DNA of 64,000 nt. Origin: a virus (lineage: Duplodnaviria > Caudoviricetes). Shown piece after piece: positions 3,683-54,625 of the stretch (its first letter is position 1; each line of letters begins with the position of its first letter). A program made the translations under genes and the position numbers. The notes beneath the pieces were generated by a model. That model saw only the letters and a program-made list of their open reading frames with translations. It did no database searches and had not been told where the DNA came from. The stretch is taken from the IMG/VR virus record IMGVR_UViG_3300008262_000055. One strand, given 5' to 3'.

Positions 3683-4071
3683 TTTGATTTCCTATAATTT
3701 CCCTTTTCGGGTATTACATGTCTAACCCCACCTGTGGGATCTTCCATGTCGCCTTTGCGTCTCGGTATTAGATGAACATGTGGCCATTCAACAGTTTGAC
3801 CAGCAGCTTTACCATAGTTGAGACCTACGTTAAATCCGTCCCATATACCCTGCTCTACTTGTAGTTTGCCAAATCGAACAGCATCTTCAATCGAGTCCAT
3901 CAACACAGCAACGGTGTTGTATTTAGGTACATATAATAGATGGCCTTCAGTTACTGGATATTTGTCAGCAAATACCTTAGTATGAAAGTCTTCGCTAATA
4001 ACAGTTTCCCATGGAGCGTCTGTTGAATCATCAATACACGGAGGTTGACTGTGTATTACGGTTTGGTTCAT
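3679..4071 (-). CDS. HIT family (histidine triad) nucleotide hydrolase
   Basis: DKYPVTEGHLLYVPK, GFNVGLNYGKAAGQTVEWPHVHLIPRR. Confidence 0.9.
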   Translation of the reverse strand: MNQTVIHSQPPCIDDSTDAPWETVISEDFHTKVFADKYPVTEGHLLYVPKYNTVAVLMDSIEDAVRFGKLQVEQGIWDGFNVGLNYGKAAGQTVEWPHVHLIPRRKGDMEDPTGGVRHVIPEKGNYRKSK

Positions 4072-4307
4072 CGTTGAAATTCCTTACGTTCTTGTGGTAG
4101 ATCGTTTTCTCGAACTACAAATTCACGCCCGCCTAAACTTCCTACAAATGCTTTGGTACGTTCCATATAGGCCAATCTTAGTTTAATAGTTTGGAATGCT
4201 ACTTCTAAAAATGCTTTAGGTTTGTATCCTAAAATATGCATATCAAAGTCTTTGCCTGCGTCTGTACAGTGAACTTTAATTTTTTGATCAATCATTTCGT
4301 CCACCAA
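4068..4307 (-). CDS. hypothetical protein
   Basis: ORF in operon packing. Confidence 0.6.
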   Translation of the reverse strand: MVDEMIDQKIKVHCTDAGKDFDMHILGYKPKAFLEVAFQTIKLRLAYMERTKAFVGSLGGREFVVRENDLPQERKEFQR

Positions 4308-4798
4308 TCTTCAAAAGGAAAATCAATCCAAACATCTTTTTCTGCTTTGTTTATCTCTTCGCCAATATAATCCATTGGCACTTCAGCTTTGCTAGCAAGA
4401 TTATCAAACACAGTGGCAAATCTTACATTGTCATTCCACACTTCGGCCCATTTGGAATCGTTAGAAAAACATCCACTAGGCCAGTCATTTAAAATCCAAT
4501 TAATTGTAGCACCAGTATCGTTGATATCATCAACAATGAGAATCTTCTTGTCATTAAACGCATCTTCAGCCATCCACAGATTGCTTTCAGTAGCGTGTTC
4601 CCCGCCGTTGTCTCTAAGGCTTACCTTTAATGCTTCACATGGCACATTAAAATATTGACTGATCATTACAGCAGGTAATAATCCGCCTCTAGTAATTCCT
4701 ACTATATAATCAGGACGCCAACTACTTAAACTGATATCTCTACATATTTTTGCTATCAGGTTTTGGAATTCTATCCAACTAACTTTACGCTTTACCAT
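4292..4798 (-). CDS. type I phosphoribosyltransferase (xanthine/guanine PRT-like)
   Basis: IVGITRGGLLPA and PRPP-binding ILIVDDINDTGAT; W.DFPFE C-terminus. Confidence 0.85.
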   Translation of the reverse strand: MVKRKVSWIEFQNLIAKICRDISLSSWRPDYIVGITRGGLLPAVMISQYFNVPCEALKVSLRDNGGEHATESNLWMAEDAFNDKKILIVDDINDTGATINWILNDWPSGCFSNDSKWAEVWNDNVRFATVFDNLASKAEVPMDYIGEEINKAEKDVWIDFPFEDWWTK

Positions 4799-5249
4799 TA
4801 GACTCCTTACGTTGTGCTATATATTTTTCGTTTTGTATCCATTTGTTGTTAACAAGAAATCCCCATTCTCTTTTTTGAGGACCTGGCATGAATAACGTCC
4901 AAGCAGTTACTCCTTCTTTTAGCTCAATACGATGATAACTGTTTGGACTACAAATTCTAAAATGACCAGGGCCACGCCAGTATTTTATTTCGTTAATTTT
5001 TTTACCTAGAGTGTTAAACACTGGGACCCATTCGTAGTACCCACCAGCAAGAATTAGTGTAGCATACGGCCATGGATGATCATGAACATCATCGGGATCA
5101 CCTTTTAAGAACTTATGTAAGAATATGTTAAAGGGAAAACGCTCGCGATCTTTAAGAAAAAGATAGTAGCGTTCTAGATATGGTTCGTTATCTACACGAT
5201 CCATGATGATACGTTTGCGACCTAGTCGTTCAAGCAGTTTCAACAACAT
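4785..5249 (-). CDS. cupin-like metal-binding protein
   Basis: VHDHPW...GGYYE and YHRIEL cupin-type His/Glu motifs. Confidence 0.55.
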   Translation of the reverse strand: MLLKLLERLGRKRIIMDRVDNEPYLERYYLFLKDRERFPFNIFLHKFLKGDPDDVHDHPWPYATLILAGGYYEWVPVFNTLGKKINEIKYWRGPGHFRICSPNSYHRIELKEGVTAWTLFMPGPQKREWGFLVNNKWIQNEKYIAQRKESNGKA

Positions 5250-5652
5250 CTCTTACCTCTTGGTCTAGATAACGGATTAATTCTTTGTCAGTAGGTTCGA
5301 CAGTATAATTCTGTTTGAAAAAGATCTCATAACTGTCTGAACCATATTTACCAATGCCATATAATATTGTAGCATCATTTCCGTCCCAGGTCAAATAACC
5401 TCTGCTCATTCCGATCAATCTCTTATAACGGACATTAACCATTCCCAAAGGCTGTATGATGCTTTTGACGAATTCTTCATCAGCGTTTATCAGTGTGATA
5501 GGATCGGGAAACCAATATAGGAATTCTGGCAGGCAGGTCTTAACAGGCTTTCGACTGGTCTGATTAAGCATTATGACACCTACAAAGTGTTCCCATGAGT
5601 TCGAGATCTGTTGTTGTACCATTAGGTCGTCACGTAGAGGGTTGAACCACAT
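5230..5652 (-). CDS. MBD4-like HhH-GPD DNA glycosylase (stand-alone catalytic domain)
   Basis: MLNQTS, IQPLGM, LYGIGKYGSDSYEIF (HhH) and EPTDKEL (catalytic Asp position) match the MBD4 glycosylase pattern. Confidence 0.8.
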   Translation of the reverse strand: MWFNPLRDDLMVQQQISNSWEHFVGVIMLNQTSRKPVKTCLPEFLYWFPDPITLINADEEFVKSIIQPLGMVNVRYKRLIGMSRGYLTWDGNDATILYGIGKYGSDSYEIFFKQNYTVEPTDKELIRYLDQEVRDVVETA

Positions 5653-5654
5653 GA

Positions 5655-5726
5655 TTATTTCCTAATAAAGATCCATAAGATGACACCAACGACGATTCCA
5701 ACTATCATACCTAGAGCGAACAGCAT
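5655..5726 (-). CDS. 23-aa single-TM micropeptide MLFALGMIVGIVVGVILWIFIRK
   Basis: Hand-translated; ATG overlaps the upstream stop (TAATG); fills the gap exactly. Confidence 0.6.
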   Translation of the reverse strand: MLFALGMIVGIVVGVILWIFIRK

Positions 5727-5944
5727 TATTCTACTCCTTCGCCAAACCAGTCATCGACCTGCTGTTCAGCTTCTTGCTGTGTCATGGCATGTACGAATAT
5801 TTTAGCAAGTTCACCTTGAGTATGTTGAATATTAAATTTAATAACACCTGCAGGGATCAAATCCCAGTCTCTTTCAACTACAAATTCTTGTAGATGTTTC
5901 ATTCTGTGTATTAAATTATCTGTGAGGGCTTTGGCTGTGCTCAT
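5726..5944 (-). CDS. hypothetical protein
   Basis: ORF in operon packing. Confidence 0.65.
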   Translation of the reverse strand: MSTAKALTDNLIHRMKHLQEFVVERDWDLIPAGVIKFNIQHTQGELAKIFVHAMTQQEAEQQVDDWFGEGVE

Positions 5945-6777
5945 CTTGGGGCAAACTCCTGTTGTAGTTTAATGTTATCAAAGAATTCTTTCTTAGTATT
6001 GCCGTCGTCTTTGAAAGCACCTTTTAATACTGTAGTCTGTGTAAGACTAGAGTGTGCCATAATACCGCGATTCTCACAGCATCCGTGTACTGCTTGGATG
6101 TAGACACCTAGATCTTTGGCTCCTGTGGCACGTTCGATCTCCCTAGCAATGTCATTACAAAGTTCCTCCTGGAGAGTACCTCGACGGGCACACCACTGAG
6201 CGATCCTTGTATACTTGCTAAGTCCGATGAGTTTCTGAGCCGCAATAAGACCAATATAAGCAACACCAGTAACGGGTTGGTGATGATGGCTGCACATGCT
6301 ACGAAGCTCACTGCGAACAACCAACATACCTTCATAACGATCCGCTGTGTCGTTGGGAAATGCTGTTGCGTCTGGTGCTGGTTCATATCTTCCTGCCATT
6401 ATTTCATTAAAATACATCTTAGCCAGTCTACGTGCTGTACCCTGACTGTTAGGATCGTTTTCACGATCAATCAGCAAACGATCTAGCACTAGTTCAAATG
6501 CTTCTGTTGCTTCGTCGATTAGTTTTTCTTTATCGCCTTCGTGTAAGAAGTCGCTGATATTATCTCCAGCCCAGAATCGTTTTCCTTCACGCTTCATTTT
6601 AAAGCGAAGATGATCACCAAGATATGCTTCTTTGTAGCCACCGTCGCCTGCCATTGCGTCAAGTGCTGTTTCTTTTTTAATATAAACCGTTTTACCTAAT
6701 GGTTCATATTTTTCTTCTTTAAAATCTTTATTCACATCTGCGTGAATTACAGGATCCGGTGTAAATTTGGTTGTCAA
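5941..6777 (-). CDS. folE: GTP cyclohydrolase I
   Basis: SMCSHHHQP, IGLSKYTRI, LQEEL, HGCCENRG motifs; TTG start with GGAG SD. Confidence 0.95.
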   Translation of the reverse strand: MTTKFTPDPVIHADVNKDFKEEKYEPLGKTVYIKKETALDAMAGDGGYKEAYLGDHLRFKMKREGKRFWAGDNISDFLHEGDKEKLIDEATEAFELVLDRLLIDRENDPNSQGTARRLAKMYFNEIMAGRYEPAPDATAFPNDTADRYEGMLVVRSELRSMCSHHHQPVTGVAYIGLIAAQKLIGLSKYTRIAQWCARRGTLQEELCNDIAREIERATGAKDLGVYIQAVHGCCENRGIMAHSSLTQTTVLKGAFKDDGNTKKEFFDNIKLQQEFAPR

Positions 6778-6812
6778 TTATTTTTCTCCGAGTTATTGTC
6801 GTGGATGACATA

Positions 6813-7913
6813 TTATTTTAACATCTTTAATAGTTTATCGCAACTAAAGAAATCATTCGTTAATATATCGACCTGTTTATTTAGGCTTGGTAAAAACTTT
6901 TCATAATTTTCCATGTACTGGATTATCTTATGGCAGACTTCTTTCCTGTGGATTTCATATGATTCAAAAGATTCAGTCCATTCGCTAGGATACTTAAATG
7001 TATCAAACGCCATTTCACTGTAGCTTAATCTATCAGGAACCATAGGAATAGCATCTACTAACGCACCTTCGTACCAGCTAATGCCTAGTGTTTCTTGTAA
7101 ATTAGCACTGAACACTAACTTTGCCTCTCCTAGCATATTATGATATTCATTTTTTGTCAACGGGTATTCTTGACAGACTTTGAACTCATATTGAGGAAGA
7201 TGTTTTTTAAGATCTTCAAAGATTGGCAATTGTTTTTCTGGAGCAATACGATGTGGAAATAGTATAAGATTACGTTTAGGCATATTCTTATACATTAACA
7301 ATGTATCAGACATATATTCCATAGGCCATCCAGAACGAACTACATTTTTCCATTCGCCTTTAAGGGCATCTGCTACATCGTCTTCTATCCAAGGATTTTC
7401 AAACATTCCGTCATTGATAAGGTTACGGATAAACATCTCAATATGAAAATTTGTAGCAAAGTAGTTGTGATCAAATGCGTAGAAGAAACTCTTCTCGGCA
7501 TTTCTAACCCAAGGCTTATTGCCTACAAGACGACCTAGGAAGTCTTGAGGATCATAACTGCCAGCATGCCATAATCCGTGTGTTGTTACCGGAATGCCCA
7601 GCAGTTCACTCATGTACTTTAAGTTTATGATACCAGGATGCCAAGCATCAGTAAAAATAAAGTGATCACCGGGATGAACGGCTCCGTTACAAAATAAGCG
7701 GCCCATCTGCTCAACCTGATTAGCTTTGTATATATTGGTACCACCAAAATTAAGAAAGGCACCAGGAGTAGTGGCACTAGGAATATCCTGAGGGCCAGAG
7801 ATAATTTGAACATCATGTCCCCTTTTTTGTAACAAGGTAGGCAAGTGAGATTTCCACTGGCCTGTGTACCTTGTTTCTACTGCTTCGAGATCTACAAGAA
7901 ATACCTTAGCCAT
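6813..7913 (-). CDS. GT-B fold glycosyltransferase (GT4-like)
   Basis: C-terminal FPHRIAPEK and E-x7-E (ETLGISWYE) nucleotide-sugar-binding motifs; start MAKVFLVD at 7913. Confidence 0.7.
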   Translation of the reverse strand: MAKVFLVDLEAVETRYTGQWKSHLPTLLQKRGHDVQIISGPQDIPSATTPGAFLNFGGTNIYKANQVEQMGRLFCNGAVHPGDHFIFTDAWHPGIINLKYMSELLGIPVTTHGLWHAGSYDPQDFLGRLVGNKPWVRNAEKSFFYAFDHNYFATNFHIEMFIRNLINDGMFENPWIEDDVADALKGEWKNVVRSGWPMEYMSDTLLMYKNMPKRNLILFPHRIAPEKQLPIFEDLKKHLPQYEFKVCQEYPLTKNEYHNMLGEAKLVFSANLQETLGISWYEGALVDAIPMVPDRLSYSEMAFDTFKYPSEWTESFESYEIHRKEVCHKIIQYMENYEKFLPSLNKQVDILTNDFFSCDKLLKMLK

Positions 7914-8124
7914 GGCGTTTATTGTATGGCTTGTATCCACGATCCGTGTAGCCACGATTGTTATCCCAACGTCTTGGAGGACGTTGACTATTTAAAAACG
8001 CACGATAATTTTCATTATCTTTATTGTATAAATGTGCGGGATTAAACTCACGCAACTCGAAACGGCAAAAATCCAAGTAGCGGTCGAGATCGTCAAAGAT
8101 TTTCTCAACTTGTTGTTTCATCAT
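7906..8124 (-). CDS. hypothetical protein
   Basis: ORF with AAGGA SD, operon packing. Confidence 0.7.
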   Translation of the reverse strand: MMKQQVEKIFDDLDRYLDFCRFELREFNPAHLYNKDNENYRAFLNSQRPPRRWDNNRGYTDRGYKPYNKRHG

Positions 8125-8133
8125 GTTTCCTTT

Positions 8134-8340
8134 TTAATATTTGATGAATGAACCATTTTCTCCGTCTTCGGAGACCTCAATCCAAACCTCACGGTCTGGG
8201 TACTTTGCGTGAATCTGAGCGTATAAATCATCGCTCATCATCTCACAACTCTTATAGTCTAGCGACAATACACCTTCGTTGCTAGAATACAATTTTTCCA
8301 ACCATCGTTTGAATTGTATAAATTCCACATCTCTGTCATT
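8134..8340 (-). pseudogene. 5'-truncated QueD-like/T-fold protein (C-terminal half NDRDVEFIQFKRWLEKLY...KSCEMMSDDLY...VSEDGENG)
   Basis: Frame is open from 8340 but preceded by in-frame TAG with no ATG or SD. From memory, it resembles the C-terminal half of a phage T-fold family found near folE/queE. Confidence 0.5.
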
Positions 8341-8531
8341 GCGTCTCTAGTCATATGAAAGTTATATGTGCTTGAAGAATTAACCTTGCCATCATCATTT
8401 AGACATTCTTGAATAATATCTACAGAAAATAATCCTTTAGGATTGATAGATTCCCAAGATTCTACACGAACCCTATATGCTGGACTTTCTTTAACAGTGA
8501 TGTTTTTAATATTTAGATCAGTGTGTCTCAT
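8259..8531 (-). CDS. hypothetical protein (C-terminus possibly chimeric)
   Basis: ORF; last ~27 codons run through the other frame of the 8134-8340 fragment. Confidence 0.6.
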   Translation of the reverse strand: MRHTDLNIKNITVKESPAYRVRVESWESINPKGLFSVDIIQECLNDDGKVNSSSTYNFHMTRDAMTEMWNLYNSNDGWKNCILATKVYCR

Positions 8532-8881
8532 CTTTTTAATGACTCCATCATTACAATTTTACCCAACGCATCACCAAGATCTTGATCTTCAGTGATAACG
8601 TGCATGCTATTAAAATTACGATCTTTGTGGCTATCGTAACTACGAGTTTCTACAACATAGCCGCCACTGGCTTTGTAAATCTGTAGACGCATACCATCAC
8701 TACAAAGTCTGTCCGATTCTACTACTTGAGGAATATCTTGTTCATACTCGTCGCTGTTCAACCAATTACGAATACGTTGTCTAAATGTTAGTTTCACTTT
8801 CGTTGCCTTTTTTATTTTACGACTGGGTCTAATTGCTTGATGTTTAGCACCAGATATAGTTGCGTAACCCATAGTTCCCAT
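8528..8881 (-). CDS. hypothetical protein
   Basis: ORF in operon packing. Confidence 0.7.
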   Translation of the reverse strand: MGTMGYATISGAKHQAIRPSRKIKKATKVKLTFRQRIRNWLNSDEYEQDIPQVVESDRLCSDGMRLQIYKASGGYVVETRSYDSHKDRNFNSMHVITEDQDLGDALGKIVMMESLKR

Positions 8882-9438
8882 TATTTGATGATCTCATCCT
8901 TGCCATATTGGTCCCAATCTGTAAAGCGATCTCTTCCCAGAAGGTCCTGTAGGTTATGGCACCATACCCCAGAATTAGTTGCGTTAAAATCTTTGTCGTC
9001 AATCTTTAATGTAGCGTTATAACCTAATTGATTTAGATAAGGTAATTTTACACTAATTTGCGGAATAAATCTACGTTTTTCGGTAAGACCGCTCTCTAGC
9101 AATCCTTCCGTTTCGCGTACATCAAAATCTAATGTACACCACAGATCATATTCACTATCTAAACATACATAGATCATACTTTCCCAAGGACGCCAAGTTT
9201 CCGAATCATTAGTGCCCTTAGTTTTAAAACTTTGATTAGCACCAAAGTAGATATGCTTGATATGTTTAGATTCGTCTGTGTAAGATCTACTTTCTTTGAC
9301 CATTTCTAAAATAATGTAAGGATCATGTACACCTACTACAAATAGAGTTTTCATTCCATAAGCAGGAGTCTTTTCAATCTCTACACCTGTAAAAAATGTA
9401 ATGTTATCTTTTATACCATCTTTATAATCACGTTTCAT
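8881..9438 (-). CDS. hypothetical protein in the deazaguanine cluster
   Basis: ORF (FFTGVEIEKTPAYGMKTLFV...HIYFGANQSF); function not recognised. Confidence 0.75.
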   Translation of the reverse strand: MKRDYKDGIKDNITFFTGVEIEKTPAYGMKTLFVVGVHDPYIILEMVKESRSYTDESKHIKHIYFGANQSFKTKGTNDSETWRPWESMIYVCLDSEYDLWCTLDFDVRETEGLLESGLTEKRRFIPQISVKLPYLNQLGYNATLKIDDKDFNATNSGVWCHNLQDLLGRDRFTDWDQYGKDEIIK

Positions 9439-9935
9439 TCTTCAAACCCCGATGATTTCATTTCACGGCTTCTCATACGTTCTTGATATTCTGCTTCATG
9501 CTTGTCGCAAAGTGTGCGGATCCACCCACCATTACGAGATTTGCCAGGATCTCCACAAGTTTCGCAAGTCCTAGCCGCCCACGATTCTGCCATACGCACC
9601 ATACCATGAATCTGTTCATCGCCACCGTCGTAATAAAAACGCAGCCCGCCAAATTTTTCTTTGACCTGTACAGCGACTACTTGATCAATAGCATCTGGAA
9701 CTTCTCTTAGTTCCTCTGGTGCGGCCTTGCTGTTAAATGTAATTGCCCATTGACGTTGTTTTTCTTTCCAATCAATGTGATGTTGAATATTACCGCATAG
9801 GCTATCGAGGACGTTATACCAACCATCGCCGCATTCAAACCCCCAACACATAAGTGTTTCTTTCATGTCTCCATGACGGTTTTTGAAAATTTTTGGATAT
9901 TTGCTACACAGTGCTTCGTCAAGTTCTTGTTTCAC
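9435..9935 (-). CDS. hypothetical protein with C-terminal CxxC...C zinc motif
   Basis: QVKEKFGGLRFYY, CETCG, TLCDKH. Confidence 0.75.
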   Translation of the reverse strand: MKQELDEALCSKYPKIFKNRHGDMKETLMCWGFECGDGWYNVLDSLCGNIQHHIDWKEKQRQWAITFNSKAAPEELREVPDAIDQVVAVQVKEKFGGLRFYYDGGDEQIHGMVRMAESWAARTCETCGDPGKSRNGGWIRTLCDKHEAEYQERMRSREMKSSGFEE

Positions 9936-10159
9936 CAGGTGCTCACATCAGTGATATCAACGGTAGTATCGATGTCCTTATCGATATCGTTGAATAGATT
10001 GAATTTTACAACAACGGTAGGACCAATTCCGCTGCTGCTACTTTCTTCTAGAGTGAACCACTCAACTTCTTTAAAGTGAGCGGCCATTTTTGCCAATTTT
10101 TCAATTTGACCTCGATTGAGGCAAAACTGAGCCGGTTGATACTTTTTATCTTTCGTCAT
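9932..10159 (-). CDS. hypothetical protein
   Basis: ORF; start moved to MTKDKKY to avoid long overlap. Confidence 0.6.
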   Translation of the reverse strand: MTKDKKYQPAQFCLNRGQIEKLAKMAAHFKEVEWFTLEESSSSGIGPTVVVKFNLFNDIDKDIDTTVDITDVSTW

Positions 10160-10358
10160 CGTCGTAATGGATAGTTTCGTGATCATGTTCCCATTGCTTA
10201 CGTTTAAGTATAGCAATTTCATCCTTTACTGTCAACTTATGTTTCTTCAAATCAGTCAATCTTTGGTCAGTAAAGTTGCCAGTTCTTTCCAAAGTTTCAA
10301 TTTGCTTGTCAAGTGCCCTGTGTGCTTCTTCCAAATGCTTGATTCTATTTTCATACAT
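10146..10358 (-). CDS. YdcH/DUF465-like coiled-coil protein
   Basis: HLEEAHRALDKQI...LKKHKLTVKDEI pattern. Confidence 0.65.
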   Translation of the reverse strand: MYENRIKHLEEAHRALDKQIETLERTGNFTDQRLTDLKKHKLTVKDEIAILKRKQWEHDHETIHYDDDER

Positions 10359-11877
10359 TCTGAGCCTCCTGTTCGTAATAAAGTTCTTCCAATTCTTTTA
10401 GCTTTTCATCTTCTGGGTCCATAAAATCTTCTACAGCACCAGTTTTGGCTTCTTCTTCGAATAAACTATTAAATTGATTTTTAGCAACACCGCCTTTAAG
10501 ACGCATACCCATCATATTATTGAGCATTGGACGAGCTTGTTCAATCATCTGCATTGGAGTTTCACTCTTAAACAATTCTTTTACGAATCGATCAAAGTAA
10601 AGTATATTTCTAGGCACCCAGTCTGAGTATTCATCACTCATGTCTGAGTCTTTGACCTTCTTCCATTCTCTCCAATCCGGATCAAATCTTGCTGTTTCGA
10701 TATCCATTAAATTATTGGCACGTTGTACTGCTTTAATATGACAGTAGGTATTATGTGCCATCATTAGAGCATAACCAAAACTGTCCCATGATGTTTTACC
10801 TTCTTTACCTACTTTGTTTAACATTCCTGGTTTATACCAACAAATGTCTCCTTGAGTAAGTCTTCTTCCTATTTCTGATTCGAAAGGGAACGGGATGTTA
10901 AAAGCCTGGCTAAGGGCTTTATTGTCGGGGGCTTTGTCCATGATGACTGACCAACGTTTGTTGGTATGTTGGGCGTTGGTGTAGACAAGTCCGTGGGCTG
11001 TTGCGATAAACGGGCTGGCACAATCAAAAGATATGGTAAAGTTTTCATTGATATTTTCCCTTACTTGACGTTGAATAGAAGTTAGATAGCAGGACCAATC
11101 CAACTGGGCTGTACCTAAGAAGTGCATCCAGTTCCTATCATCTAAGAGTTTTTCGTCTCTAAGAATAATAAGGCGTTTCAATGCGATTTCCATATCGCAC
11201 ATATTTTTACCACCCATCGCCCAACCTTCAGTTGGCAGATGTTTAACCGCTTCATACCAAGCCTGTGCTGTTTCCCAATCGCTGCCTTGTAGCACGTTTA
11301 AGAACTTGGTTTGCCCTAATCGATTACGAATGAAATAATCATTATTGTGTAAAGTTTTATCTAAGCAATCATTAAAACTTTTTAAACCAGTTTTTGGACT
11401 ATGAATATGATCACACGCCCACGTAGGCACGTCTAACAACATCGACCAGTCGGCAGTTAATTCTAACCAGTTAAGGATATTATCTCGAACTTTATTTGCA
11501 GCGGCACCTTCAAAGTTTTGCCAATCAAATTTAAGAACACCTTTACCAATCTGATAACCACCGGAATCACCTACAATCACTGTATTAGCACGATCTCGAT
11601 CTTGTATCATAGCATCCTGTGTTATGGTTTTATTTAGATCTAACTGTGCGTGACCTGCTGAATACAGTCCGTACTTGTAAGTAAAGTATCCTTCTTCCGG
11701 ATTTAAAAAGTTCATACCTTCGATGCCTCGATCAAAGCCTTTGGGAATTCGATCATCTGGAACAAATTTATCAAATCTTTGTTTGCTGACGTAGGTGCTA
11801 AAAAAGCAGCTAATGGCTGGCAGATATACTGCGTAATCTTTTTGTAAAGGTGTTAAATTAACTGGTGGCTGTTTCAT
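10351..11877 (-). CDS. dpdA: TGT-fold guanine transglycosylase, probably DNA-acting DpdA type
   Basis: TGT catalytic motifs in order: GDSGGYQ, LLDVP, VLQG, AMGG, HFLG, SFDCASP; same locus as folE and queE. Confidence 0.7.
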   Translation of the reverse strand: MKQPPVNLTPLQKDYAVYLPAISCFFSTYVSKQRFDKFVPDDRIPKGFDRGIEGMNFLNPEEGYFTYKYGLYSAGHAQLDLNKTITQDAMIQDRDRANTVIVGDSGGYQIGKGVLKFDWQNFEGAAANKVRDNILNWLELTADWSMLLDVPTWACDHIHSPKTGLKSFNDCLDKTLHNNDYFIRNRLGQTKFLNVLQGSDWETAQAWYEAVKHLPTEGWAMGGKNMCDMEIALKRLIILRDEKLLDDRNWMHFLGTAQLDWSCYLTSIQRQVRENINENFTISFDCASPFIATAHGLVYTNAQHTNKRWSVIMDKAPDNKALSQAFNIPFPFESEIGRRLTQGDICWYKPGMLNKVGKEGKTSWDSFGYALMMAHNTYCHIKAVQRANNLMDIETARFDPDWREWKKVKDSDMSDEYSDWVPRNILYFDRFVKELFKSETPMQMIEQARPMLNNMMGMRLKGGVAKNQFNSLFEEEAKTGAVEDFMDPEDEKLKELEELYYEQEAQNV

Positions 11878-12226
11878 GTTCTCTCGCTAAAATTGTTGTA
11901 AGTTCTAATCTAGTCTTTGCCTGTTCTAATTGATCTAATGCTATACGAACTGCTTCGTTGCTAGAAGCCAGCTTGTACCATTCATTTTCTTGAGCACGTT
12001 TCTTACGTGCCCATTGAACTATATCTAATACGTCTTGATCTAGGCCTACAGTAGCATAACTGGTACTCATGTTGATCCATGAGTTGCCGTCAAACACCTG
12101 CATATCATTACCCCATACACGGAGCATACCTTGTATAGGATTGTTGTTGTTTTGATTAATGTACGGCATACTGGTGTTACCACCAGTTACCGTTAACCCG
12201 CTAATACCTTGTAGACCTTTAATCAT
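11858..12226 (-). CDS. hypothetical protein
   Basis: ORF in operon packing. Confidence 0.7.
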   Translation of the reverse strand: MIKGLQGISGLTVTGGNTSMPYINQNNNNPIQGMLRVWGNDMQVFDGNSWINMSTSYATVGLDQDVLDIVQWARKKRAQENEWYKLASSNEAVRIALDQLEQAKTRLELTTILAREHETATS

Positions 12227-13025: not shown

Positions 13026-15692
13026 TCACTCAAAATCAAACAATTTGCTGAATGTATTATCCGACCTAGTTGAACTGATGTCCCATTCCAAAACACCAAT
13101 TAGGTTTTCTAACTTTTCATCGATAACTGTGGTTTCCATTTCACCGTCGGCGAAAGGCAAGTCTTTGAACCATTGAGGAAGTCTAAGCTCGTCAACAGGA
13201 TAAGCTACACTAGTATAGCCCATTGGATTATCTTTGATCTTACATACAATGACTTTAGCACCATCAGTGATACTCATGCTGTATTTGTCATCATTCATGC
13301 GTTTCAAAGTATTCCAATTTAAGCTAGCTCGAACATGTCCTGGCATGTTTGCTTTGCCTTGTTTCTTTTCTTTGGCCTGATACTCAGTGATATTGTTGGC
13401 TCGTTTAGGAGAACCTTTTTCCCAACCCGGCCGTGTTTTAAATTCAGTTCTAAAATTAGTAATGTATTCTAGGACTTCTTCTTTAGGCACACCGTTTAGG
13501 ACTTGTTCTAGCACTTGACTTAAGAAATCTTGAATAACAACTGGAGTGTCTGAACGTTTAAGATCTAGACCCATAGCCTTGATCTTTCCCGGTTTACCAT
13601 TTACATCTGCTCGTTTACCTTCTTTATCATAATAAAGAACAGCATAGCGTTTCTTAGTAATAAACAGACCTTTTGAAGCTACTAGTTCTCTTCCTGCTTT
13701 GATAACTTCGCCGCGAGTTTTAGGACAATGAAACTTATCTTGCATCATTTTAGGAAAGCTGGCATTTACCTCATCTGCTATTTGGTCGTAGAGTTGGACT
13801 ACAGTTTCTTTATTCCAAGGTAACTGACCGCTTTCAATTTCTTTTTTCAACACAGGGTAAGCGGAAAAATAACAAGAGTCTGTGTCGCCGTAGATTACAG
13901 CTTTTCCTTTGTAATCATATTCGCCTGTGGCTATTTCATTTATTTTACCAGCCATGTGTCTAACAATCTGTCTACCACTAAGTGTAGTACTTTGACCAAT
14001 CCTGTTATCAAAGAATCTACAGCCGGGATTAAGAATAGCACCATACAGGCTGTTTAGGTTAATCTTTTTAACTAATTGACGCTTGTCCCAGTATTCTTCT
14101 TCTACTTTATTTCCGGCAGCAATACACTCTTTGAGTTTGGCCTGCATCTCTTTACGTTCAGCGTACCAGCGTTTTAACAATCCGGGAATAACACCTTCTT
14201 TTTCGTAAGTGAAAATTGTACCGTTAGCAGAAATCATCCAAGGTTGATTACTTTCGAAGATAAGGTCATAGATTTGAGCACCACTTAGGGTATCGCTACC
14301 CCCACCTTCCCAATCAATTGTAATTTCTTTGGCAATATTTCTTTCCATCACGAATTCGTATTCAAGACTACCAAATATACCTTCCCAAGCAGCAGCAAAT
14401 GATTTTCCCTTGCCCATTTCCTGTTCAATGTAATTTTTTGTATAGTCTTGACGTAATTGTCCAACAATAGTCTCTGGACCCATATTCAAAGCACGAATCG
14501 CTGACGGATACAGCGAGTTAATATCAACTGAACCGATCCATTCGTGGATACCTTTCTTTGGATACGCAACATACGCACCCGCAGCCGGCTCTGAACCAGG
14601 TTCTCTTCGGATCCTATTAGGAACAATCATTCCTCTTCGATGAGCTTCGTTAATAATAGCCTGTTCAGTAACAGCTACAGCACCCATAGTTGTCTGTAAT
14701 AATACAGTACATTCATGTGCTAGTTTGTTAGCAAGATCTAAAAACTTTAGTTTTTTGTCTAATTTATCTAACAAGGCCGTGTCTTGTCTATTGTATTCAA
14801 TGAACTTACGGAAATCGTTGTTATACAGTTGATCCAACGTACCTTCGTAGACAGTCTTGTTCTCACCTATCTCCATTTCTCCAATAGCATCAAGTCTGTA
14901 TGTGTGGCGTTCTTCATAGGTATATTTGCGGTACAACTCGAGACTGTCCAGATGAACACGACCAACAAGGTCATAAGTAACAGCTTGCCTTCCATACTTC
15001 TCATACTCTCGTTTCTTTGGATATTGATCCCACAGACAGAATCTACGTGTGTCGTCTTTGCTTAATACCTTGGTTACACGATTAACAGTATAAGGAATAT
15101 CAAAGCCTTCTGAGTTCCATCCGCTTAATACATCGGCGTCTTGGATTAAATTTAGGAAGTTGTCTAACAGCTCTGCTTCTGTTTCAAAAATATAAGTATT
15201 AGGAAATTCTGCTACTGCTTGTTTAGCTTCTTCTACGGTGAGAGTTTTTGGAGGTATAGCTAAACATACTAGAGTATCTAACCATTGTAAGTGTACAGCA
15301 ATAGCAGTTATAGGCATAAACGCATCTTCTGGTGATGCGTAGCCACGCTCAGGATCAAAGTCTACTTCAATGTCAAAGAATGCTACATGTAATTTGGGGG
15401 AGTCTTGATTTAGATAATTGTCTTCTAGACATCGATAAATTGGATTTATATCCGATTCATACAGCTTCATACCGCTGTGTATTTTAAGTTCTTTATGTAG
15501 GTCTTTGAGATTTTTACAAGTTACACGGCTAAGTGGTTCGCCGTTAGTACTAGTATATTTGCCCTTAGGGTCTTGAAAGTAAAAGATATGTCGAGCAGGA
15601 TATTCTTTAAAATGTCTATGGCCATTATCGTCTCGTTCAACGATGTGGATAGTATCCTGATCGCGATTATAGAATGCGTCAACGTAACTCAA
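13026..15692 (-). CDS. polB: family B DNA polymerase (T4 gp43-like)
   Basis: Exo FDIEVD, WNSEGFD, YNRQD; pol DINSLYPS, KINLNSLYG, YGDTDS; TTG start with AGGAG SD. Confidence 0.97.
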   Translation of the reverse strand: MSYVDAFYNRDQDTIHIVERDDNGHRHFKEYPARHIFYFQDPKGKYTSTNGEPLSRVTCKNLKDLHKELKIHSGMKLYESDINPIYRCLEDNYLNQDSPKLHVAFFDIEVDFDPERGYASPEDAFMPITAIAVHLQWLDTLVCLAIPPKTLTVEEAKQAVAEFPNTYIFETEAELLDNFLNLIQDADVLSGWNSEGFDIPYTVNRVTKVLSKDDTRRFCLWDQYPKKREYEKYGRQAVTYDLVGRVHLDSLELYRKYTYEERHTYRLDAIGEMEIGENKTVYEGTLDQLYNNDFRKFIEYNRQDTALLDKLDKKLKFLDLANKLAHECTVLLQTTMGAVAVTEQAIINEAHRRGMIVPNRIRREPGSEPAAGAYVAYPKKGIHEWIGSVDINSLYPSAIRALNMGPETIVGQLRQDYTKNYIEQEMGKGKSFAAAWEGIFGSLEYEFVMERNIAKEITIDWEGGGSDTLSGAQIYDLIFESNQPWMISANGTIFTYEKEGVIPGLLKRWYAERKEMQAKLKECIAAGNKVEEEYWDKRQLVKKINLNSLYGAILNPGCRFFDNRIGQSTTLSGRQIVRHMAGKINEIATGEYDYKGKAVIYGDTDSCYFSAYPVLKKEIESGQLPWNKETVVQLYDQIADEVNASFPKMMQDKFHCPKTRGEVIKAGRELVASKGLFITKKRYAVLYYDKEGKRADVNGKPGKIKAMGLDLKRSDTPVVIQDFLSQVLEQVLNGVPKEEVLEYITNFRTEFKTRPGWEKGSPKRANNITEYQAKEKKQGKANMPGHVRASLNWNTLKRMNDDKYSMSITDGAKVIVCKIKDNPMGYTSVAYPVDELRLPQWFKDLPFADGEMETTVIDEKLENLIGVLEWDISSTRSDNTFSKLFDFE

Positions 15693-22470: not shown

Positions 22471-23109
22471 TTAGTCCTGTATAATCAGGTTATAAACTGT
22501 GCCAACCACGTTAGAATTCTTTAATTTCAGCATTAGCAGCGTCTTTTCGCTATCTACAAGAATATATCTACGATCCCAGTTCCAGTGAGTAGTTATAAAC
22601 CACTGCGATACAGCGTCAGAAATAGAAACTCCATTAACGCTTTTTAACCATTTAATATACTGCGGTTTTTCACTAACATCCATTTTATGAGGTTTCATGT
22701 ATACTCGCATAGTAAACTTATCTTGAGGATACTTTTTTACAAGAATGGTATGTTTGTCAGATAGTTGCTGCTCGGGTTTTTGTGCGAATCGTATTTTTTC
22801 GGGTAACAGGCATAGCATTGTGTTAAAAAATGCTTCGTCGCTAGTATAAACATCAATGATATTTGTTTCTATTCTAATATCATAGGAATTTCCAGGAACT
22901 TTTTTTAATAAGCCAGTGAGATGTACTAAATCATCCTTGCTATTGATAATTTTGCGATTATAGGTACTGTTAGGCACAAGTTTTTCAATAGTATTCTCAA
23001 TACCGTCAAAAGACTTATGCCTTATGAATGAACAGCCGTCAATGTTATAGCTGACTTTGTAAAGCCATTTACCGTAGAATAACTTTTTAGTTGGCTTGTA
23101 TTGTATCAT
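22471..23109 (-). CDS. hypothetical protein
   Basis: 212-aa ORF. Confidence 0.75.
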   Translation of the reverse strand: MIQYKPTKKLFYGKWLYKVSYNIDGCSFIRHKSFDGIENTIEKLVPNSTYNRKIINSKDDLVHLTGLLKKVPGNSYDIRIETNIIDVYTSDEAFFNTMLCLLPEKIRFAQKPEQQLSDKHTILVKKYPQDKFTMRVYMKPHKMDVSEKPQYIKWLKSVNGVSISDAVSQWFITTHWNWDRRYILVDSEKTLLMLKLKNSNVVGTVYNLIIQD

Positions 23110-25429
23110 CTTTTATCAATGGAGCACCGTCTAGAATCCTTCTATGGTGCTTAAAAGCACGTTTTTCGTACTTGTCTAGCTCGTCCTCTTGTAATTTTAC
23201 AACAAACTCTAGTTTATTGTCAACCACATTAACAAATACCTTGCCTCCATTTTTCAATTCACCGAATAGTATTTTTCTACTAACAGGTGATTTGATTTCG
23301 TTATCAATTAGTCTGTTTAGAGGTCTAGCACCTAATTTGACATTATAACCATTCTTAGCTAGCCAATTTCTAGAATCATCTGTGAGTACAATTTCTACAC
23401 CCTTGTCTTTGATCTGATGATTTAATTCACGCATAAACTTGTCTACGATAACTTTGACAGTATCCATTGATAATCCGCCAAATTTAACAATAGCATCTAA
23501 ACGATTACGGAACTCAGGAGCAAAGAATTTCTTAACCGCTTTATCATCTTCGCCGTCTTTGTTTAAATCGCCAAACCCAATAGTGTTTCTTTCATTGTCC
23601 GCCGCACCTAAGTTTGATGTCATAATAAGAATGCTGTTACGGCCATCTGCTTGTTTACCATTACTGCCTGTTACAAAACCATTATCCATGAACTGTAACA
23701 AGATATTAGAAACATCTGGATGAGCTTTTTCAATTTCATCAAGCAATAAAACACAGTTTGGTGTTTCTTGAAGTTTAGTAATCAGTTGTCCGGCATTATC
23801 TTCAAAACCTACATAGCCCGGAGGAGCACCGATCAGTCTTGCTACACTGTGTTTTTCTTGATATTCGCTCATATCAAATCTTACCAATGGCATTGTCATC
23901 TTTTCAGACAATGCTTTAGCAGTTTCGGTTTTGCCACAACCAGTTGGACCCACAAACAAGAAACATCCAATGGGCTTATTGGGTACTTTCATACCTGCTT
24001 GTGCTACAAAGATTTTATCGAGCAAGTTAGAGATTGCTGATTCCTGACCAAACACAGAATTTTTTAAATTGGCTTCTAAGTCTGACAGATTTTTAGATTC
24101 CTTTTCGCTAACTGCTTCAAACGGCATATTGGTCATTTTACTGACTTCAAACATAACCTGTTCAATGTCAACAATACTTACAGCAGTTTCGACATCATTA
24201 TCTTTGATTTTATATCTAGCCGCAGAGCAATCGATAATGTCAATGGCCTTATCTGGTAATTTCTTATCGGGCATGTATTTGATACTCATTTTTACAGCCT
24301 GTTCGATAGCAGCATCGGTAATTTTAACACCGTGAAACTGCTCGTAATACTTGCGAATGCCTTTGATAATCTTAACTGACAGTTCCGGTGTAGGCTCATC
24401 AACTGTAACACGCTGGAATCGACGCATCAAAGCACGATCCTTTTCAAAGTGTTTACGATATTCTTCCCATGTAGTTGACGCAATGACTTTCATTGTACCT
24501 TTGGTCAACATTGGCTTGAGGATGTTAGCCAAATCGTTAGCTGACCCATTAGCGGCACCAGCACCATTCATCATATGTGCTTCGTCGATGAACAGAATAA
24601 TTTTTCCTTTTTTCTCCAAGGCTGTTAGAACTGCTTTAATTCGTTCTTCAAAGTCGCCTCTATATTTGCTGCCTGCTAGCAACGCAGAGATATCTAATGT
24701 ATAGACACTATGGTCTAATATAAATTTAGGAACTTTCTTTTCAAATATTTTACGAGCTAGCCCTTCTGCTATAGCAGTTTTACCAACTCCGGGTTCGCCA
24801 ACTAATAAAACGTTGCTCTTTGTCCTACGTGCTAGAATAAGTTGTATTTTTTCTAACTCGTCATCTCTGCCTATTACTGGATCAATCTTACGTTGTTTTG
24901 CCAAGAGGCTTAGATTACTACAGAATTGATTGAGAATTTTATCCAATTGGTTATGATTTAGTCTAGGATTTTGTTCGTCTACTTCGATATCGTTTTCAAA
25001 TTTGGATTGGAAGTATTCGATTAGTTTTTCTTTAGTAATACCAGCTTTGGTCATATAATAAAAACTAAAGCTCTTTCTTTCTCCGATAATGGCAATTAAC
25101 ACATCTTCTACTTCAATAACTTGTCGCCCACTGAATAAGGCCTGTGTAAATGCTCTGTTTAGCACACGCTCAACTGAAGTAGTTCTTTTTGGTTTGTGTT
25201 TATCAGTACCAGTTCTAATATCATCTAATTTTGTTTTAAGAAAATGATCTAAATTAACTTTGAGGTACTCGCTAGCAAATCCGGATTTCTGTAAACCATT
25301 AAATGTTTCCTCATCTAACATAATAGAAAAGGTTAAATGTTCAATAGTAATGTATTCGTGTTCTAGTCTTTGAGCAACATCGATCGCTTTTTCAAAGACT
25401 GCTTGGAGTTTTTTACTTGGTTCTAGCAT
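23087..25429 (-). CDS. clpA: ClpA-type ATP-dependent unfoldase
   Basis: Clp N-domain (HEYITIEHL); GEPGVGKT and GPTGCGKT Walker A motifs; FDMSEYQEKH; no ClpB coiled-coil M-domain. Confidence 0.92.
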   Translation of the reverse strand: MLEPSKKLQAVFEKAIDVAQRLEHEYITIEHLTFSIMLDEETFNGLQKSGFASEYLKVNLDHFLKTKLDDIRTGTDKHKPKRTTSVERVLNRAFTQALFSGRQVIEVEDVLIAIIGERKSFSFYYMTKAGITKEKLIEYFQSKFENDIEVDEQNPRLNHNQLDKILNQFCSNLSLLAKQRKIDPVIGRDDELEKIQLILARRTKSNVLLVGEPGVGKTAIAEGLARKIFEKKVPKFILDHSVYTLDISALLAGSKYRGDFEERIKAVLTALEKKGKIILFIDEAHMMNGAGAANGSANDLANILKPMLTKGTMKVIASTTWEEYRKHFEKDRALMRRFQRVTVDEPTPELSVKIIKGIRKYYEQFHGVKITDAAIEQAVKMSIKYMPDKKLPDKAIDIIDCSAARYKIKDNDVETAVSIVDIEQVMFEVSKMTNMPFEAVSEKESKNLSDLEANLKNSVFGQESAISNLLDKIFVAQAGMKVPNKPIGCFLFVGPTGCGKTETAKALSEKMTMPLVRFDMSEYQEKHSVARLIGAPPGYVGFEDNAGQLITKLQETPNCVLLLDEIEKAHPDVSNILLQFMDNGFVTGSNGKQADGRNSILIMTSNLGAADNERNTIGFGDLNKDGEDDKAVKKFFAPEFRNRLDAIVKFGGLSMDTVKVIVDKFMRELNHQIKDKGVEIVLTDDSRNWLAKNGYNVKLGARPLNRLIDNEIKSPVSRKILFGELKNGGKVFVNVVDNKLEFVVKLQEDELDKYEKRAFKHHRRILDGAPLIKDDTIQAN

Positions 25430-25432
25430 TGA

Positions 25433-25924
25433 TTATTTTCTCTTATTAATTTTTTTAATAGCTAATTGTAGCTTCATCTGAGATACTCTGTCAACAAAAC
25501 ATATTCCCTTTAGGTGATCAAACTCGTGTTGAAAACATCTAGCAATTAGCCCGTCCATCTCAGCAGTGACAATGTCTCCTTTGCTATTTTGAAACTCTGC
25601 GATAATAGCTTTGGGTCGTTTAATAGTTAACCATAAATCAGGATAACTCAAACATCCTTCTTTAAAAAGGTCTGTGTCTTTGCTTACTTCTAAAATTTTA
25701 GGATTAAACACAGCCATAGGTTCGTATCCTGAAATATTTTTACTACCTATCACAAAAACATTTTTTGTAAATCCTATTTGATTAGCAGCTAGCCCTATGC
25801 CGTTATTATCTAACATAAAGTCTATCATTTGTTTTTCTAGATCCTCTGCGTTTTTATCAACAGAAAAATCCCAGTCCAAGCTAACCTGTGTTAACGCATC
25901 ATGTGGGCCGAGTTCAAATGCCAT
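25433..25924 (-). CDS. def: peptide deformylase
   Basis: GIGLAANQIG, EGCLS, QHEFDHLKG. Confidence 0.95.
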   Translation of the reverse strand: MAFELGPHDALTQVSLDWDFSVDKNAEDLEKQMIDFMLDNNGIGLAANQIGFTKNVFVIGSKNISGYEPMAVFNPKILEVSKDTDLFKEGCLSYPDLWLTIKRPKAIIAEFQNSKGDIVTAEMDGLIARCFQHEFDHLKGICFVDRVSQMKLQLAIKKINKRK

Positions 25925-26723
25925 TGCGTAAATCCTCTATAAGTTTTTTTGCCTGCTCAGAAAGTATCTTTGGTATGTTAACTTTAACTTTAATTAAAAT
26001 TGCTCCACGCACTCCTGATCGAGGGTGTGGTAGGCCTTCTCCTTTGCAGCTAAACACTGTCCCAGGTTGTGTTCCAGCTGGTACTGTTATGCTTAGAGTT
26101 TTCTTTTCTAAAGTTTCAAAAGTTACTTCAGTTCCTAGTAGTGCTTCCCAAACATCTATATCTTTTTCTAACAATAGATTAGAGTGCTCTCTACGCCATA
26201 TTGGATGAGGTATTACTCTAACAGTTACAATAAGGTCGCCGGGGTGAAGTTTGGGAATACTGTGATCTCCCATTCCTGGATATCTGATCTGTACATTATC
26301 TTCAATACCTGCTGGTATGTTTATAGAAACTAGTTTTTTCTGACCGTTTCTAAAGCTGATCTCAGCATCTATGGTTTTACCAGTCAACACATCTTCTAGA
26401 GTAATTGTGACATTGGCACCTATGTTAGTATTTCTTTGTTGCTGTTGGAAACCAAATCCAAAAGGACTACCTCCACCAAAAAATGTTGTGAAGATATCAT
26501 CGCCCATATTACTGGTATTAAACTGGTATTGATTAGGATTGTCGTATTGAAATCTTTTTTCATCGTCGCTGAGTGTACGATATGCTTCTTCAATTTCTTT
26601 AAATTTATTAGCGTCACCGCCGCGGTCAGGATGATGCTTCATAGCCAAGCTACGATATGCTTTTTTAATTTCGTCCTGTGTAGCAGATTTTCCTACACCT
26701 AAAGTTTTATAATAATCTATCAT
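25914..26723 (-). CDS. dnaJ: DnaJ/CbpA-type co-chaperone
   Basis: J-domain with HPD, G/F-rich linker, C-terminal domain; no zinc finger. Confidence 0.92.
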   Translation of the reverse strand: MIDYYKTLGVGKSATQDEIKKAYRSLAMKHHPDRGGDANKFKEIEEAYRTLSDDEKRFQYDNPNQYQFNTSNMGDDIFTTFFGGGSPFGFGFQQQQRNTNIGANVTITLEDVLTGKTIDAEISFRNGQKKLVSINIPAGIEDNVQIRYPGMGDHSIPKLHPGDLIVTVRVIPHPIWRREHSNLLLEKDIDVWEALLGTEVTFETLEKKTLSITVPAGTQPGTVFSCKGEGLPHPRSGVRGAILIKVKVNIPKILSEQAKKLIEDLRNGI

Positions 26724-31103: not shown

Positions 31104-31612
31104 AATTCCACCTGTTCTACTTTGACTCCCGATTTTTCAAGAAACTCAACACCACTAGTATCCCTATAAGAGTTCCGATATAAAACACTGCCAATACCAC
31201 TTTGGAATATAAGTTTGGCACACTCCATACATGGAGCATGGGTAATAAACATAGTAGCACCCACACCGCTGTTGTTAGACTTAGCCAGTTTTGCGATCGC
31301 ATTAGATTCTGCATGTAACACCTCTGGTTTTGTTTTTAATCCATATCTGACATTACGTTCTGCTTCTGAATGCCATTCTTCATAGGGATATTTGATTTCA
31401 ATCTCTTCTGGACTCAACCATCCACCGGCTCCGGGATCAAATACCTTATCCTCGCAGTTGTTATCCCAACCAGCAGGCATACCGTTGTATCCATAACTGA
31501 TAACACTATCGTCTTTGACAATAACAGCACCAACTTGTAATCGCATAGCATGACTAAGTTTTGAACAGCGTTCGGCCCAATCCATATACAGGCTAATAAA
31601 TTTCTGTTTCAT
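31100..31612 (-). CDS. dCMP deaminase
   Basis: GYNGMP, HAESNAI, PCMECAK zinc-deaminase motifs. Confidence 0.92.
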   Translation of the reverse strand: MKQKFISLYMDWAERCSKLSHAMRLQVGAVIVKDDSVISYGYNGMPAGWDNNCEDKVFDPGAGGWLSPEEIEIKYPYEEWHSEAERNVRYGLKTKPEVLHAESNAIAKLAKSNNSGVGATMFITHAPCMECAKLIFQSGIGSVLYRNSYRDTSGVEFLEKSGVKVEQVEF

Positions 31613-32529: not shown

Positions 32530-32729
32530 TTTTTGTCCTTGTTTATTTGATCTAATTCGTGCGGTTCTGCAAATCTAACATTTGGATCTATCATTTTATA
32601 CAACTGAAAAGGTTTCCAGTACTTATGAAGAAGATTGTTTATAACGAGAATAACTGCAAATACAACAATAAACCCGAGTCCTGCTAAAATGCTACTTGCT
32701 AAAAAAATTGCTGCTTGATCCATCGTCAT
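32526..32729 (-). CDS. hypothetical membrane protein
   Basis: Single long TM segment. Confidence 0.65.
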   Translation of the reverse strand: MTMDQAAIFLASSILAGLGFIVVFAVILVINNLLHKYWKPFQLYKMIDPNVRFAEPHELDQINKDKK

Positions 32730-54607: not shown

Positions 54608-54612
54608 AATCA

Positions 54613-54619: not shown

Positions 54620-54625
54620 TGTAAA

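Follow-up and report, generated by a model that had tools for sequence, protein, structure and literature searches.

MBD4 is a DNA glycosylase usually regarded as eukaryotic and tied to CpG methylation. A function for G:T mismatch repair can also be encoded beside a DNA-modification system, as in the cases of Mig.MthI and the dcm-vsr locus of Escherichia coli. Here, a glycosylase gene is described from a 64,000-nucleotide (nt) stretch of viral DNA (Duplodnaviria; Caudoviricetes; IMG/VR record IMGVR_UViG_3300008262_000055), which is referred to in full as the window. By sequence and predicted fold, its 140-amino-acid (aa) product is a stand-alone glycosylase belonging to the helix-hairpin-helix (HhH) class HhH-GPD, of the MBD4 type and nearer to MBD4 than to Nth, MutY or MIG. 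Its probable role is accessory: a monofunctional glycosylase for G:T and G:U mismatches, initiating base-excision repair in phage DNA, and not one of the steps in the 7-deazaguanine pathway whose genes surround it.

The MBD4 active site is known in detail from the mouse enzyme, in which Asp534 (D560 in human) is catalytic and Tyr514 occupies the position of the lyase Lys in bifunctional HhH enzymes such as hOGG1; the Y514F substitution nearly abolishes activity (PMC3458566). The flipped T is recognised at O2 and N3 by Gln423 and Tyr514 and at O4 by the amide of Val422, and the base is sandwiched by Leu440, Leu421 and Lys536 (PMC3458566). Arg442 fills the gap left by the flipped base, Leu482 is wedged into the other strand, and the orphan guanine is held at its Watson-Crick edge by main-chain carbonyls, with no contact to the major groove (PMC3458566). 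A second point of comparison is given by Dag1 and Dag2, which are host-encoded, excise modified guanine and degrade phage DNA by means of a Lys-Asp pair and a stacking Trp (bioRxiv 10.1101/2025.10.29.685425). No paper describing phage MBD4-like glycosylases was found in the literature, where related topics gave unrelated or host-side work only; annotation pipelines already name many such phage enzymes.

Family and fold of the phage glycosylase

The open reading frame (ORF; P0001) begins with an ATG at position 5652, as seen in the ORF listing and its translation (Table 1). Its product matches the Pfam family HhH-GPD (PF00730) with 31.9 bits against a cut-off of 26.2, and neither PHROGs nor NCBIfam holds a family for it. 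A phmmer search of the PDB matched 15 distinct chains, all of them MBD4 glycosylase domains, with E-values from 2e-16 to 7e-15 over residues 4-130, a sequence match far beyond chance. In the phmmer alignments to mouse and human MBD4, LHGIGKYGNDSYRIF and HPEDHKL stand opposite the phage motifs LYGIGKYGSDSYEIF (residues 97-111) and EPTDKEL (residues 119-125). An earlier interpretation of the letters alone (the sequence-only reading) had quoted both phage motifs in a 140-aa protein and named the two MBD4 strings, and all four were correct.

The predicted structure gives the same assignment. An AlphaFold2 model built from a 52-sequence alignment has a pLDDT of 91.1, and its best 16 Foldseek matches are all MBD4 glycosylase domains (TM-score 0.81-0.87, E 1e-7 to 1e-5), with MutY, MIG (1KEA) and endonuclease III ranking lower (TM-score 0.6-0.7, E about 1e-3). 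The proposal of a stand-alone MBD4-type enzyme with a catalytic Asp is thus upheld by the PDB search, by Foldseek and by D122, and comparison with MBD4, MutY, Nth and MIG clearly places the protein with MBD4 in both sequence and fold. It consists of the catalytic domain only, without the N-terminal methyl-CpG-binding domain. With a single Cys among its 140 residues, it has no [4Fe-4S] cluster.

Active-site residues and substrate

The phage protein retains D122, Y103, Q13, V12, L29, N30 and L69, and M71 takes the place of the wedge. The HhH motif spans L97-Y108, with Y103 lying within GIGKYG, and G70, G101, Y103, D122 and L125 are invariant in the 52-sequence alignment. D122, Y103 and Q13 align with mouse Asp534, Tyr514 and Gln423 in three of four alignments; for Q13 these are the phmmer alignment, a 10-sequence MAFFT alignment (A6), in which it is invariant, and an hmmalign alignment to a profile that excludes the window's clade. 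Taken together, the residues and the model point to a monofunctional mismatch glycosylase of the T/U type, both the substrate and the monofunctionality being predictions.

Several features weigh against a simple equation with MBD4. There is a one-residue deletion after the N-terminal VQ motif, and the 52-sequence MAFFT alignment (A1) places Q13 one residue off. The Arg finger of MBD4 (Arg442) is Gln31 in the phage protein, as in MutY and Nth; in this column, the 46 stand-alone members have Q (24), L (8), R (8) or K (4), and the eukaryotic rows have R or K. The Lys536 column is occupied by Glu124, with Lys123 adjacent (D-K-E-L versus D-H-K-L), and D-K-x-L is found in 34 of the 46 stand-alone members and in some eukaryotic rows. 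Furthermore, Gly445 of MBD4, which lies near C5 of the flipped base, is Arg34 in the phage protein, and the preference for a 5-substituent may therefore differ from that of MBD4.

These three substitutions, Gln31, Glu124 and Arg34, line or flank the pocket and would suit an enzyme for another lesion or base, such as oxidised pyrimidines or a phage-made 5-substituted uracil, or one that counters host DNA cytosine deaminases. The pairing with an Fpg/Nei glycosylase in some phages (see below) would also agree with such a role. The residues that read the Watson-Crick edge of T or U are nevertheless conserved, and no thymidine-modification gene was seen in the window, so that a different substrate of this kind appears very improbable.

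The pocket also bears on whether the enzyme could be offensive, damaging the DNA of the host or of competitor phages in a mirror image of the host defence glycosylases Dag1/Dag2 (HhH) and Brig1 (uracil-DNA glycosylase, UDG). Bacteria do use HhH-fold glycosylases to destroy deazaguanine-modified phage DNA (bioRxiv 10.1101/2025.10.29.685425), and the phage gene sits in a DNA-modification cluster. However, the conserved pocket residues are the T/U readers of MBD4 and not those of a purine pocket, and Dag1, with its Lys-Asp pair and stacking Trp, appears to be bifunctional, whereas the phage protein has Tyr at the lyase-Lys position defined by hOGG1. Mismatches in host DNA would also be too rare as a target, and the neighbours of the family are replication genes. 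The earlier suggestion of an attack on unmodified host DNA found no support, and exclusion by base excision is given very little probability.

Linkage to the deazaguanine cluster

Around the glycosylase gene, queE, a MazG-like gene, HIT, PRTase, a cupin-like gene, folE and a 380-aa gene of no recognised family lie on one strand, followed on the same strand by a 508-aa protein, the clamp and the family B DNA polymerase (PolB). The glycosylase gene is the second gene downstream of folE, with orf72 intervening, and lies in the modification cluster, as the sequence-only reading had it, within an array of folE, queE and a gene with the fold of tRNA-guanine transglycosylase (TGT). Its 3' end overlaps the start of the next gene, which encodes the cupin, by 20 nt. 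This overlap suggests co-transcription and translational coupling, and no terminator-like site was found on the minus strand between folE and the HIT gene.

The 508-aa protein is called DpdA-like for its fold. It has no Pfam match and no PDB sequence match, even with a 10-sequence profile, and its model is poor (pLDDT 56), with the first 117 residues modelled as disordered. Its 50 best Foldseek matches are all TGTs, at low TM-scores and with the resemblance confined to the central barrel. Because there is no sequence match and the model is poor, the TGT assignment comes from Foldseek only. With this caveat, and given a predicted structure of that quality, "deazaguanine DNA-modification cluster" would be a fair description of the array. 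A hypothetical protein of PA5oct, 43% identical to the DpdA-like protein, occupies the same place after PolB and the clamp.

Linkage was counted in the 80 nearest IMG/VR loci, whose glycosylases are 76-94% identical to that of the window. The order GT380-folE-orf72-glycosylase-cupin-PRTase-HIT-queE is found in 52 of these, and about 28 (80-86% identity) have other neighbours, namely MazG-like, ClpP, GDSL lipase and sugar-nucleotide enzyme genes and DNA ligase. A contig of 379 kb has gp32, UvsX, helicases and DnaB as neighbours of the glycosylase gene. Where the glycosylase is only about 50% identical (PolB 70-74%), its gene is still no more than 10 kb away from the cluster, with at least three further gene orders; positions among these are the PRTase-HIT interval and the PolB-clamp interval.

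This repeated linkage to folE, queD, queE and HIT in several gene orders counts against a role unconnected with the cluster and leaves room for lineage-specific adaptation to modified DNA. Such an adaptation could yield an enzyme specialised for deazaguanine DNA, tuned to excise T or U lying opposite some derivative of 7-deazaguanine, a situation in which mismatch repair or base-excision repair by the host may not succeed. Enzyme and cluster would then make up a module of modification plus repair like dcm-vsr or M.MthTI-Mig. The 52 loci with the gene between folE and cupin/PRTase/HIT/queE agree with this explanation, as do the more divergent copies that remain close to the cluster, the phage contigs binned in metagenome-assembled genomes (MAGs), which again put the gene beside queD or HIT, and the 20-nt overlap. 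The absence of a major-groove contact in MBD4 also implies that a substituent at position 7 of guanine should be tolerated.

The presence and absence of the two components do not follow one another, however. Among loci seeded with the DpdA-like protein and spanning folE and the cupin gene, the glycosylase is present in 13 and missing from at least 14, including three relatives whose DpdA-like protein is 92-94% identical. A profile search found no copy anywhere in G013, a 353-kb genome (99% complete) with the DpdA-like gene, folE and queE. G014, which has the most similar DpdA-like protein (92% identical) among the relatives searchable as a whole record, carries a glycosylase of 62% identity in another slot about 20 kb away. 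Phages of the PA5oct type keep PolB-clamp-DpdA-like...queE without a glycosylase. In the other direction, folE is absent from the family carriers S-TIM54 and Xp12 and from three giant-phage carriers that are at least 91% complete (G008, G009 and G010; 349, 294 and 225 kb). Fragments of 68-133 kb with glycosylases of 80-86% identity show neither folE nor a DpdA-like gene, but at only 19-36% completeness they weigh neither way.

Co-occurrence with the TGT-fold enzyme and with folE, queD and queE across phages therefore breaks down both ways, through carriers without folE and through clusters without the gene, and the functional tie to the deazaguanine system that had been suggested earlier was not sustained. 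Nor does the gene have a fixed place within the cluster. At least five slots were found: folE-cupin, PRTase-HIT, PolB-clamp, PRA-PH-clamp loader and gp32/UvsX-helicase. As the slots vary and presence dissociates from the cluster in both directions, the gene is best described as an accessory cassette moving among slots within the region for replication and nucleotide metabolism. Its tie to the deazaguanine cluster is facultative and specific to certain lineages, and an enzyme dedicated to deazaguanine DNA is considered unlikely.

The G014 copy (L259, G014:C1:49995-53390) is flanked by homologues of two window genes (33918-34286 and 31618-32541). In the window, the same slot, with the PRA-PH/MazG-like gene on one side and the clamp loader on the other, holds a D-Ala-D-Ala carboxypeptidase and a cytidylyltransferase (Table 1), its content being variable. 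The G014 slot also holds a homologue of a further window ORF (56094-56462).

Across 44 syntenic relatives, the median identity is 80% for the glycosylase, 84% for PolB, 65% for the DpdA-like protein and 62% for PRTase. Judged by these sequence identities, the glycosylase is under strong constraint (purifying selection). A conserved glycosylase-glycosyltransferase pair was also considered and rejected, since no similarity could be detected between the 380-aa gene upstream of folE and the protein encoded next after the glycosylase in a different group of phages.

Distribution and phylogeny of the family

The sequence-only reading had held a phage copy of MBD4 to be unexpected, which proved not to be so. 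Metagenomes contain more than 4,100 clusters of the family at 90% identity, and about 600 or more IMG/VR stretches carry it per scan. An exhaustive search (E up to 1e-3) gave 1,276 clusters at 50% identity, a mix of stand-alone proteins of 130-200 aa and eukaryotic MBD4s of 240-535 aa. The cultured carriers are Cyanophage S-TIM54, all Xp12-type phages of Xanthomonas and Stenotrophomonas, Janthinobacterium phage Donnerlittchen and Aeropyrum virus APSV1. Their homologues are annotated as hypothetical protein, endonuclease III, ENDO3c or A/G-specific adenine glycosylase.

A pattern scan of 185,579 prokaryote species genomes returned eight matches, all on MAG contigs and six of them full-length. 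Five of these contigs (L172, L175-L177 and the fragment L178) bear further genes of this phage group, and L175 carries the array GT380-glycosylase-PRTase-HIT-folE-queE. L172 and L175-L177 come from MAGs labelled Methanobacteriota, Rickettsiales and Neomarinimicrobiota, and one of the contigs measures 335 kb; they probably represent DNA of giant phages that was binned in error. On L173 (Actinomarina) and L174, the glycosylase match stands alone. The family is thus very large among phages known only from uncultured material, and prokaryote genomes are almost devoid of it.

In a quick unrooted tree, 24 of the 28 long (eukaryotic) rows fall into one clade (SH-aLRT 87), and the stand-alone rows form a broad radiation in which the window and S-TIM54 group together. 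Without an outgroup, the direction of transfer between viruses and eukaryotes is not readable from this tree. By sequence, the stand-alone phage family is a radiation beside the eukaryotic MBD4s. A bolder proposal can be built on this, namely that the virus-borne radiation is possibly ancestral to the eukaryotic domain, is preferentially kept by phages with modified DNA (5-methylcytosine (5mC), 5-hydroxymethylcytosine or deazaguanine) and is here adapted to T or U opposite 7-deazaguanine as the repair half of a modification-plus-maintenance module. This combination is regarded as distinctly doubtful.

Genomic context across phages

In distant phages, the neighbours of the MBD4-type gene include PolB (26-33% identical to that of the window), PolA, an AEP primase, UvrD- and UvsW-like helicases, an FkbM methyltransferase and a NUDIX hydrolase, and an Fpg/Nei glycosylase lies two genes away. 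Neighbours of the family also include gp32/UvsX and DNA ligase. The context across the family is replication and repair.

Xp12, whose DNA has 5mC in place of C, carries its glycosylase (MT664984.1, 5875-6357) two genes upstream of a ThyA-family enzyme and a dCMP deaminase, a placement that fits the classical role of MBD4. Xp12 and all of its relatives encode an unannotated MBD4-type glycosylase. The Xp12-type enzyme is a natural candidate for the repair of deaminated 5mC, and no description of it in 5mC repair was found in the literature. In S-TIM54, genes are present for ThyX, a second enzyme of the ThyA family and a C5 DNA methyltransferase (OP053362.1, 142324-146233 and 167030-167629), which hints at cytosine modification in this glycosylase-carrying cyanophage.

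Such carriers raise the question of whether the window's enzyme, like MBD4, repairs deaminated 5-methyl- or 5-hydroxymethylcytosine, in which case the phage DNA would also carry modified cytosine. Its homologues in all Xp12-type phages lie close to genes for 5mC synthesis, and S-TIM54 adds a methyltransferase and a ThyA-family gene to its ThyX. A syntenic relative of the window that is 98% complete (G006) speaks against this, since it has ThyX together with an ATP-dependent ligase, and no C5 DNA methyltransferase or ThyA-family enzyme was found in it. Neither enzyme was found among the scanned window ORFs of at least 100 aa. For the window's lineage, 5mC repair was set aside on the evidence of G006, and the chance that modified cytosine is the relevant substrate here is judged to be slight. 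No UDG-family enzyme was found in G006 either, and the MBD4-type protein would therefore be its only detectable glycosylase excising U or T.

Proposed role and significance

The explanation favoured here, with reasonable though not strong confidence, is that of an accessory mismatch glycosylase for genome maintenance, as predicted from the sequence and the model. The enzyme would bind duplex DNA through its helix-hairpin-helix motif, LYGIGKYGSDSY. M71 would wedge into the helix, and a pyrimidine mispaired with G (T, U or a 5-substituted uracil) would be flipped out into the pocket formed by M11/V12/Q13, L29 and Y103, where D122 would cleave the glycosidic bond. The abasic site may then be passed to other enzymes, of which UvdE and PolB in the window, the ATP-dependent ligase of the near-complete relative, or host enzymes are putative partners. 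The gene would be expressed with the genes for replication and nucleotide metabolism. As MBD4 reads the orphan G on its Watson-Crick edge and does not touch the major groove, the phage enzyme should also work with 7-deaza-substituted G, and by analogy substituents at position 7 of the partner guanine probably make no difference to it.

The family at large is of more interest than this locus. A compact viral version of MBD4, of 130-160 aa and abundant in giant phages, represents a large uncharacterised group of base-excision enzymes. The family could inform the origin of the eukaryotic MBD4 domain, reveal how genome accuracy is preserved in phages whose DNA chemistry is unusual, and supply small thymine/uracil mismatch glycosylases as tools. 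For the window itself the practical outcome is negative, in that the glycosylase is not to be counted in the deazaguanine pathway when its cluster is interpreted.

The host phage and other features of the window

The window belongs to an uncultured giant phage. Its PolB, whose gene heads the co-directional array with the glycosylase gene, is 51% identical to that of Sinorhizobium phage Phosso and 47% identical to that of Atu_ph07, and a megablast search of positions 4000-12000 against cultured phages gave no match. PolB may fill the repair gap. Two ORFs of 200 and 272 aa in the array have no Pfam match and look SGNH/GDSL-like by eye.

UvdE enzymes incise apurinic/apyrimidinic sites. The UvdE-family endonuclease of the window is thus a candidate for incising the abasic site left by the glycosylase, the two genes having no positional link. 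It lies near an Fe/Mn superoxide dismutase (190 aa), and the presence of both indicates that the phage carries further DNA-damage genes.

Upstream of the glycosylase, the gap that separates its gene from orf72 is filled by a hydrophobic micro-ORF of 23 codons, MLFALGMIVGIVVGVILWIFIRK, with an ATG that overlaps the stop of orf72 (TAATG) and a stop codon 2 nt ahead of the ATG of the glycosylase. Relatives have a shorter gap, and an 8-residue N-terminal extension of the glycosylase is found in place of the micro-ORF. Elsewhere in the window, a 157-aa ORF near the RFC-like clamp loader has a match limited to a short N-terminal part of the NTPase domain of DnaE (DNA polymerase III alpha; profile positions 9-94 of 260), and a chaperone block contains genes for a ClpB-like double-AAA chaperone (780 aa), a peptide deformylase and a DnaJ-like protein in a row.

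Table 1. Positions of the glycosylase gene and of other features in the window.
Feature	Position	Strand	Basis or remark
MBD4-type HhH-GPD DNA glycosylase gene	5230..5652	-	Pfam, PDB phmmer, alignments, AlphaFold2, Foldseek
Shine-Dalgarno-like AGGAAA	5658..5663	-	5 nt upstream of ATG 5652; sequence inspection
Gene overlap, glycosylase 3' end and start of next gene	5230..5249	-	ORF coordinates; 20 nt
Cupin gene, 154 aa	4785-5249		PHROG 4786, "cysteine dioxygenase"-like
Micro-ORF, 23 codons	5655-5726	-	
orf72, 72 aa	5726-5944		
folE	5941-6777		
DpdA-like protein, 508 aa	10351-11877	-	TGT-like by fold only
Family B DNA polymerase, head of array	13026..15692	-	Sequence searches
Chaperone block	23087-26723	-	
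RFC-like clamp loader	31609-32529		Beside the 157-aa ORF with DnaE segment
Gene on one side of the G014 slot	31618-32541		Homologue flanks the G014 glycosylase copy
D-Ala-D-Ala carboxypeptidase and cytidylyltransferase	32726-33915	-	Slot of the G014 glycosylase copy
Gene on the other side of this slot	33918-34286		Homologue flanks the G014 glycosylase copy
ORF with DnaE segment, 157 aa	35103-35576	-	Short N-terminal match
Superoxide dismutase and UvdE region	54041-55943	-	
UvdE-family endonuclease, 352 aa	54885..55943	-	Pfam PF03851, E 9e-40
queD	58112-58660		

Comparison with known systems

The glycosylase domain of mammalian MBD4/MED1 (1NGN, 3IHO, 4E9E, 4EVV, 4EW0, 6VJW and 7KZ0) shares 31-35% identity with the phage protein over its whole length, the range being that of the top 16 fold matches. 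In common with MBD4, the phage protein has the fold, the catalytic Asp, the Tyr of the HhH motif, the T/U-reading Gln, a hydrophobic wedge and no Fe-S cluster. Unlike MBD4, it is viral and stands alone at 140 aa, with no methyl-CpG-binding domain or linker, and it has Gln31 for the Arg finger, D-K-E-L for D-H-K-L and Arg34 for Gly445.

The phage homologues are likewise small stand-alone proteins. The one from S-TIM54 (UYE97365.1) is 47% identical and belongs to the window's clade, those of Xp12 (QNN97216.1) and its group are about 30% identical, and those of Donnerlittchen and APSV1 are of the same family; the phages in question, S-TIM54, Xp12, Donnerlittchen and APSV1, are all without folE.

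Of the G:T repair functions encoded beside modification systems, Mig.MthI (1KEA) shares with the phage protein the HhH-GPD class and a Tyr in the corresponding motif (TM-score 0.69). In contrast to the phage protein, Mig has an Fe-S cluster and belongs to the MutY/Nth branch, and there is no match between the two at the sequence level. Vsr differs in being an endonuclease and not a glycosylase. Dag1 and Dag2 from Vibrio integrons share with the phage protein both membership of the HhH superfamily of glycosylases and a connection with 7-deazaguanine phage DNA (bioRxiv 10.1101/2025.10.29.685425). The phage protein differs from them in keeping the pyrimidine pocket of MBD4 and in having no lyase Lys, a comparison made for Dag1 by its published residues and not by an aligned sequence.

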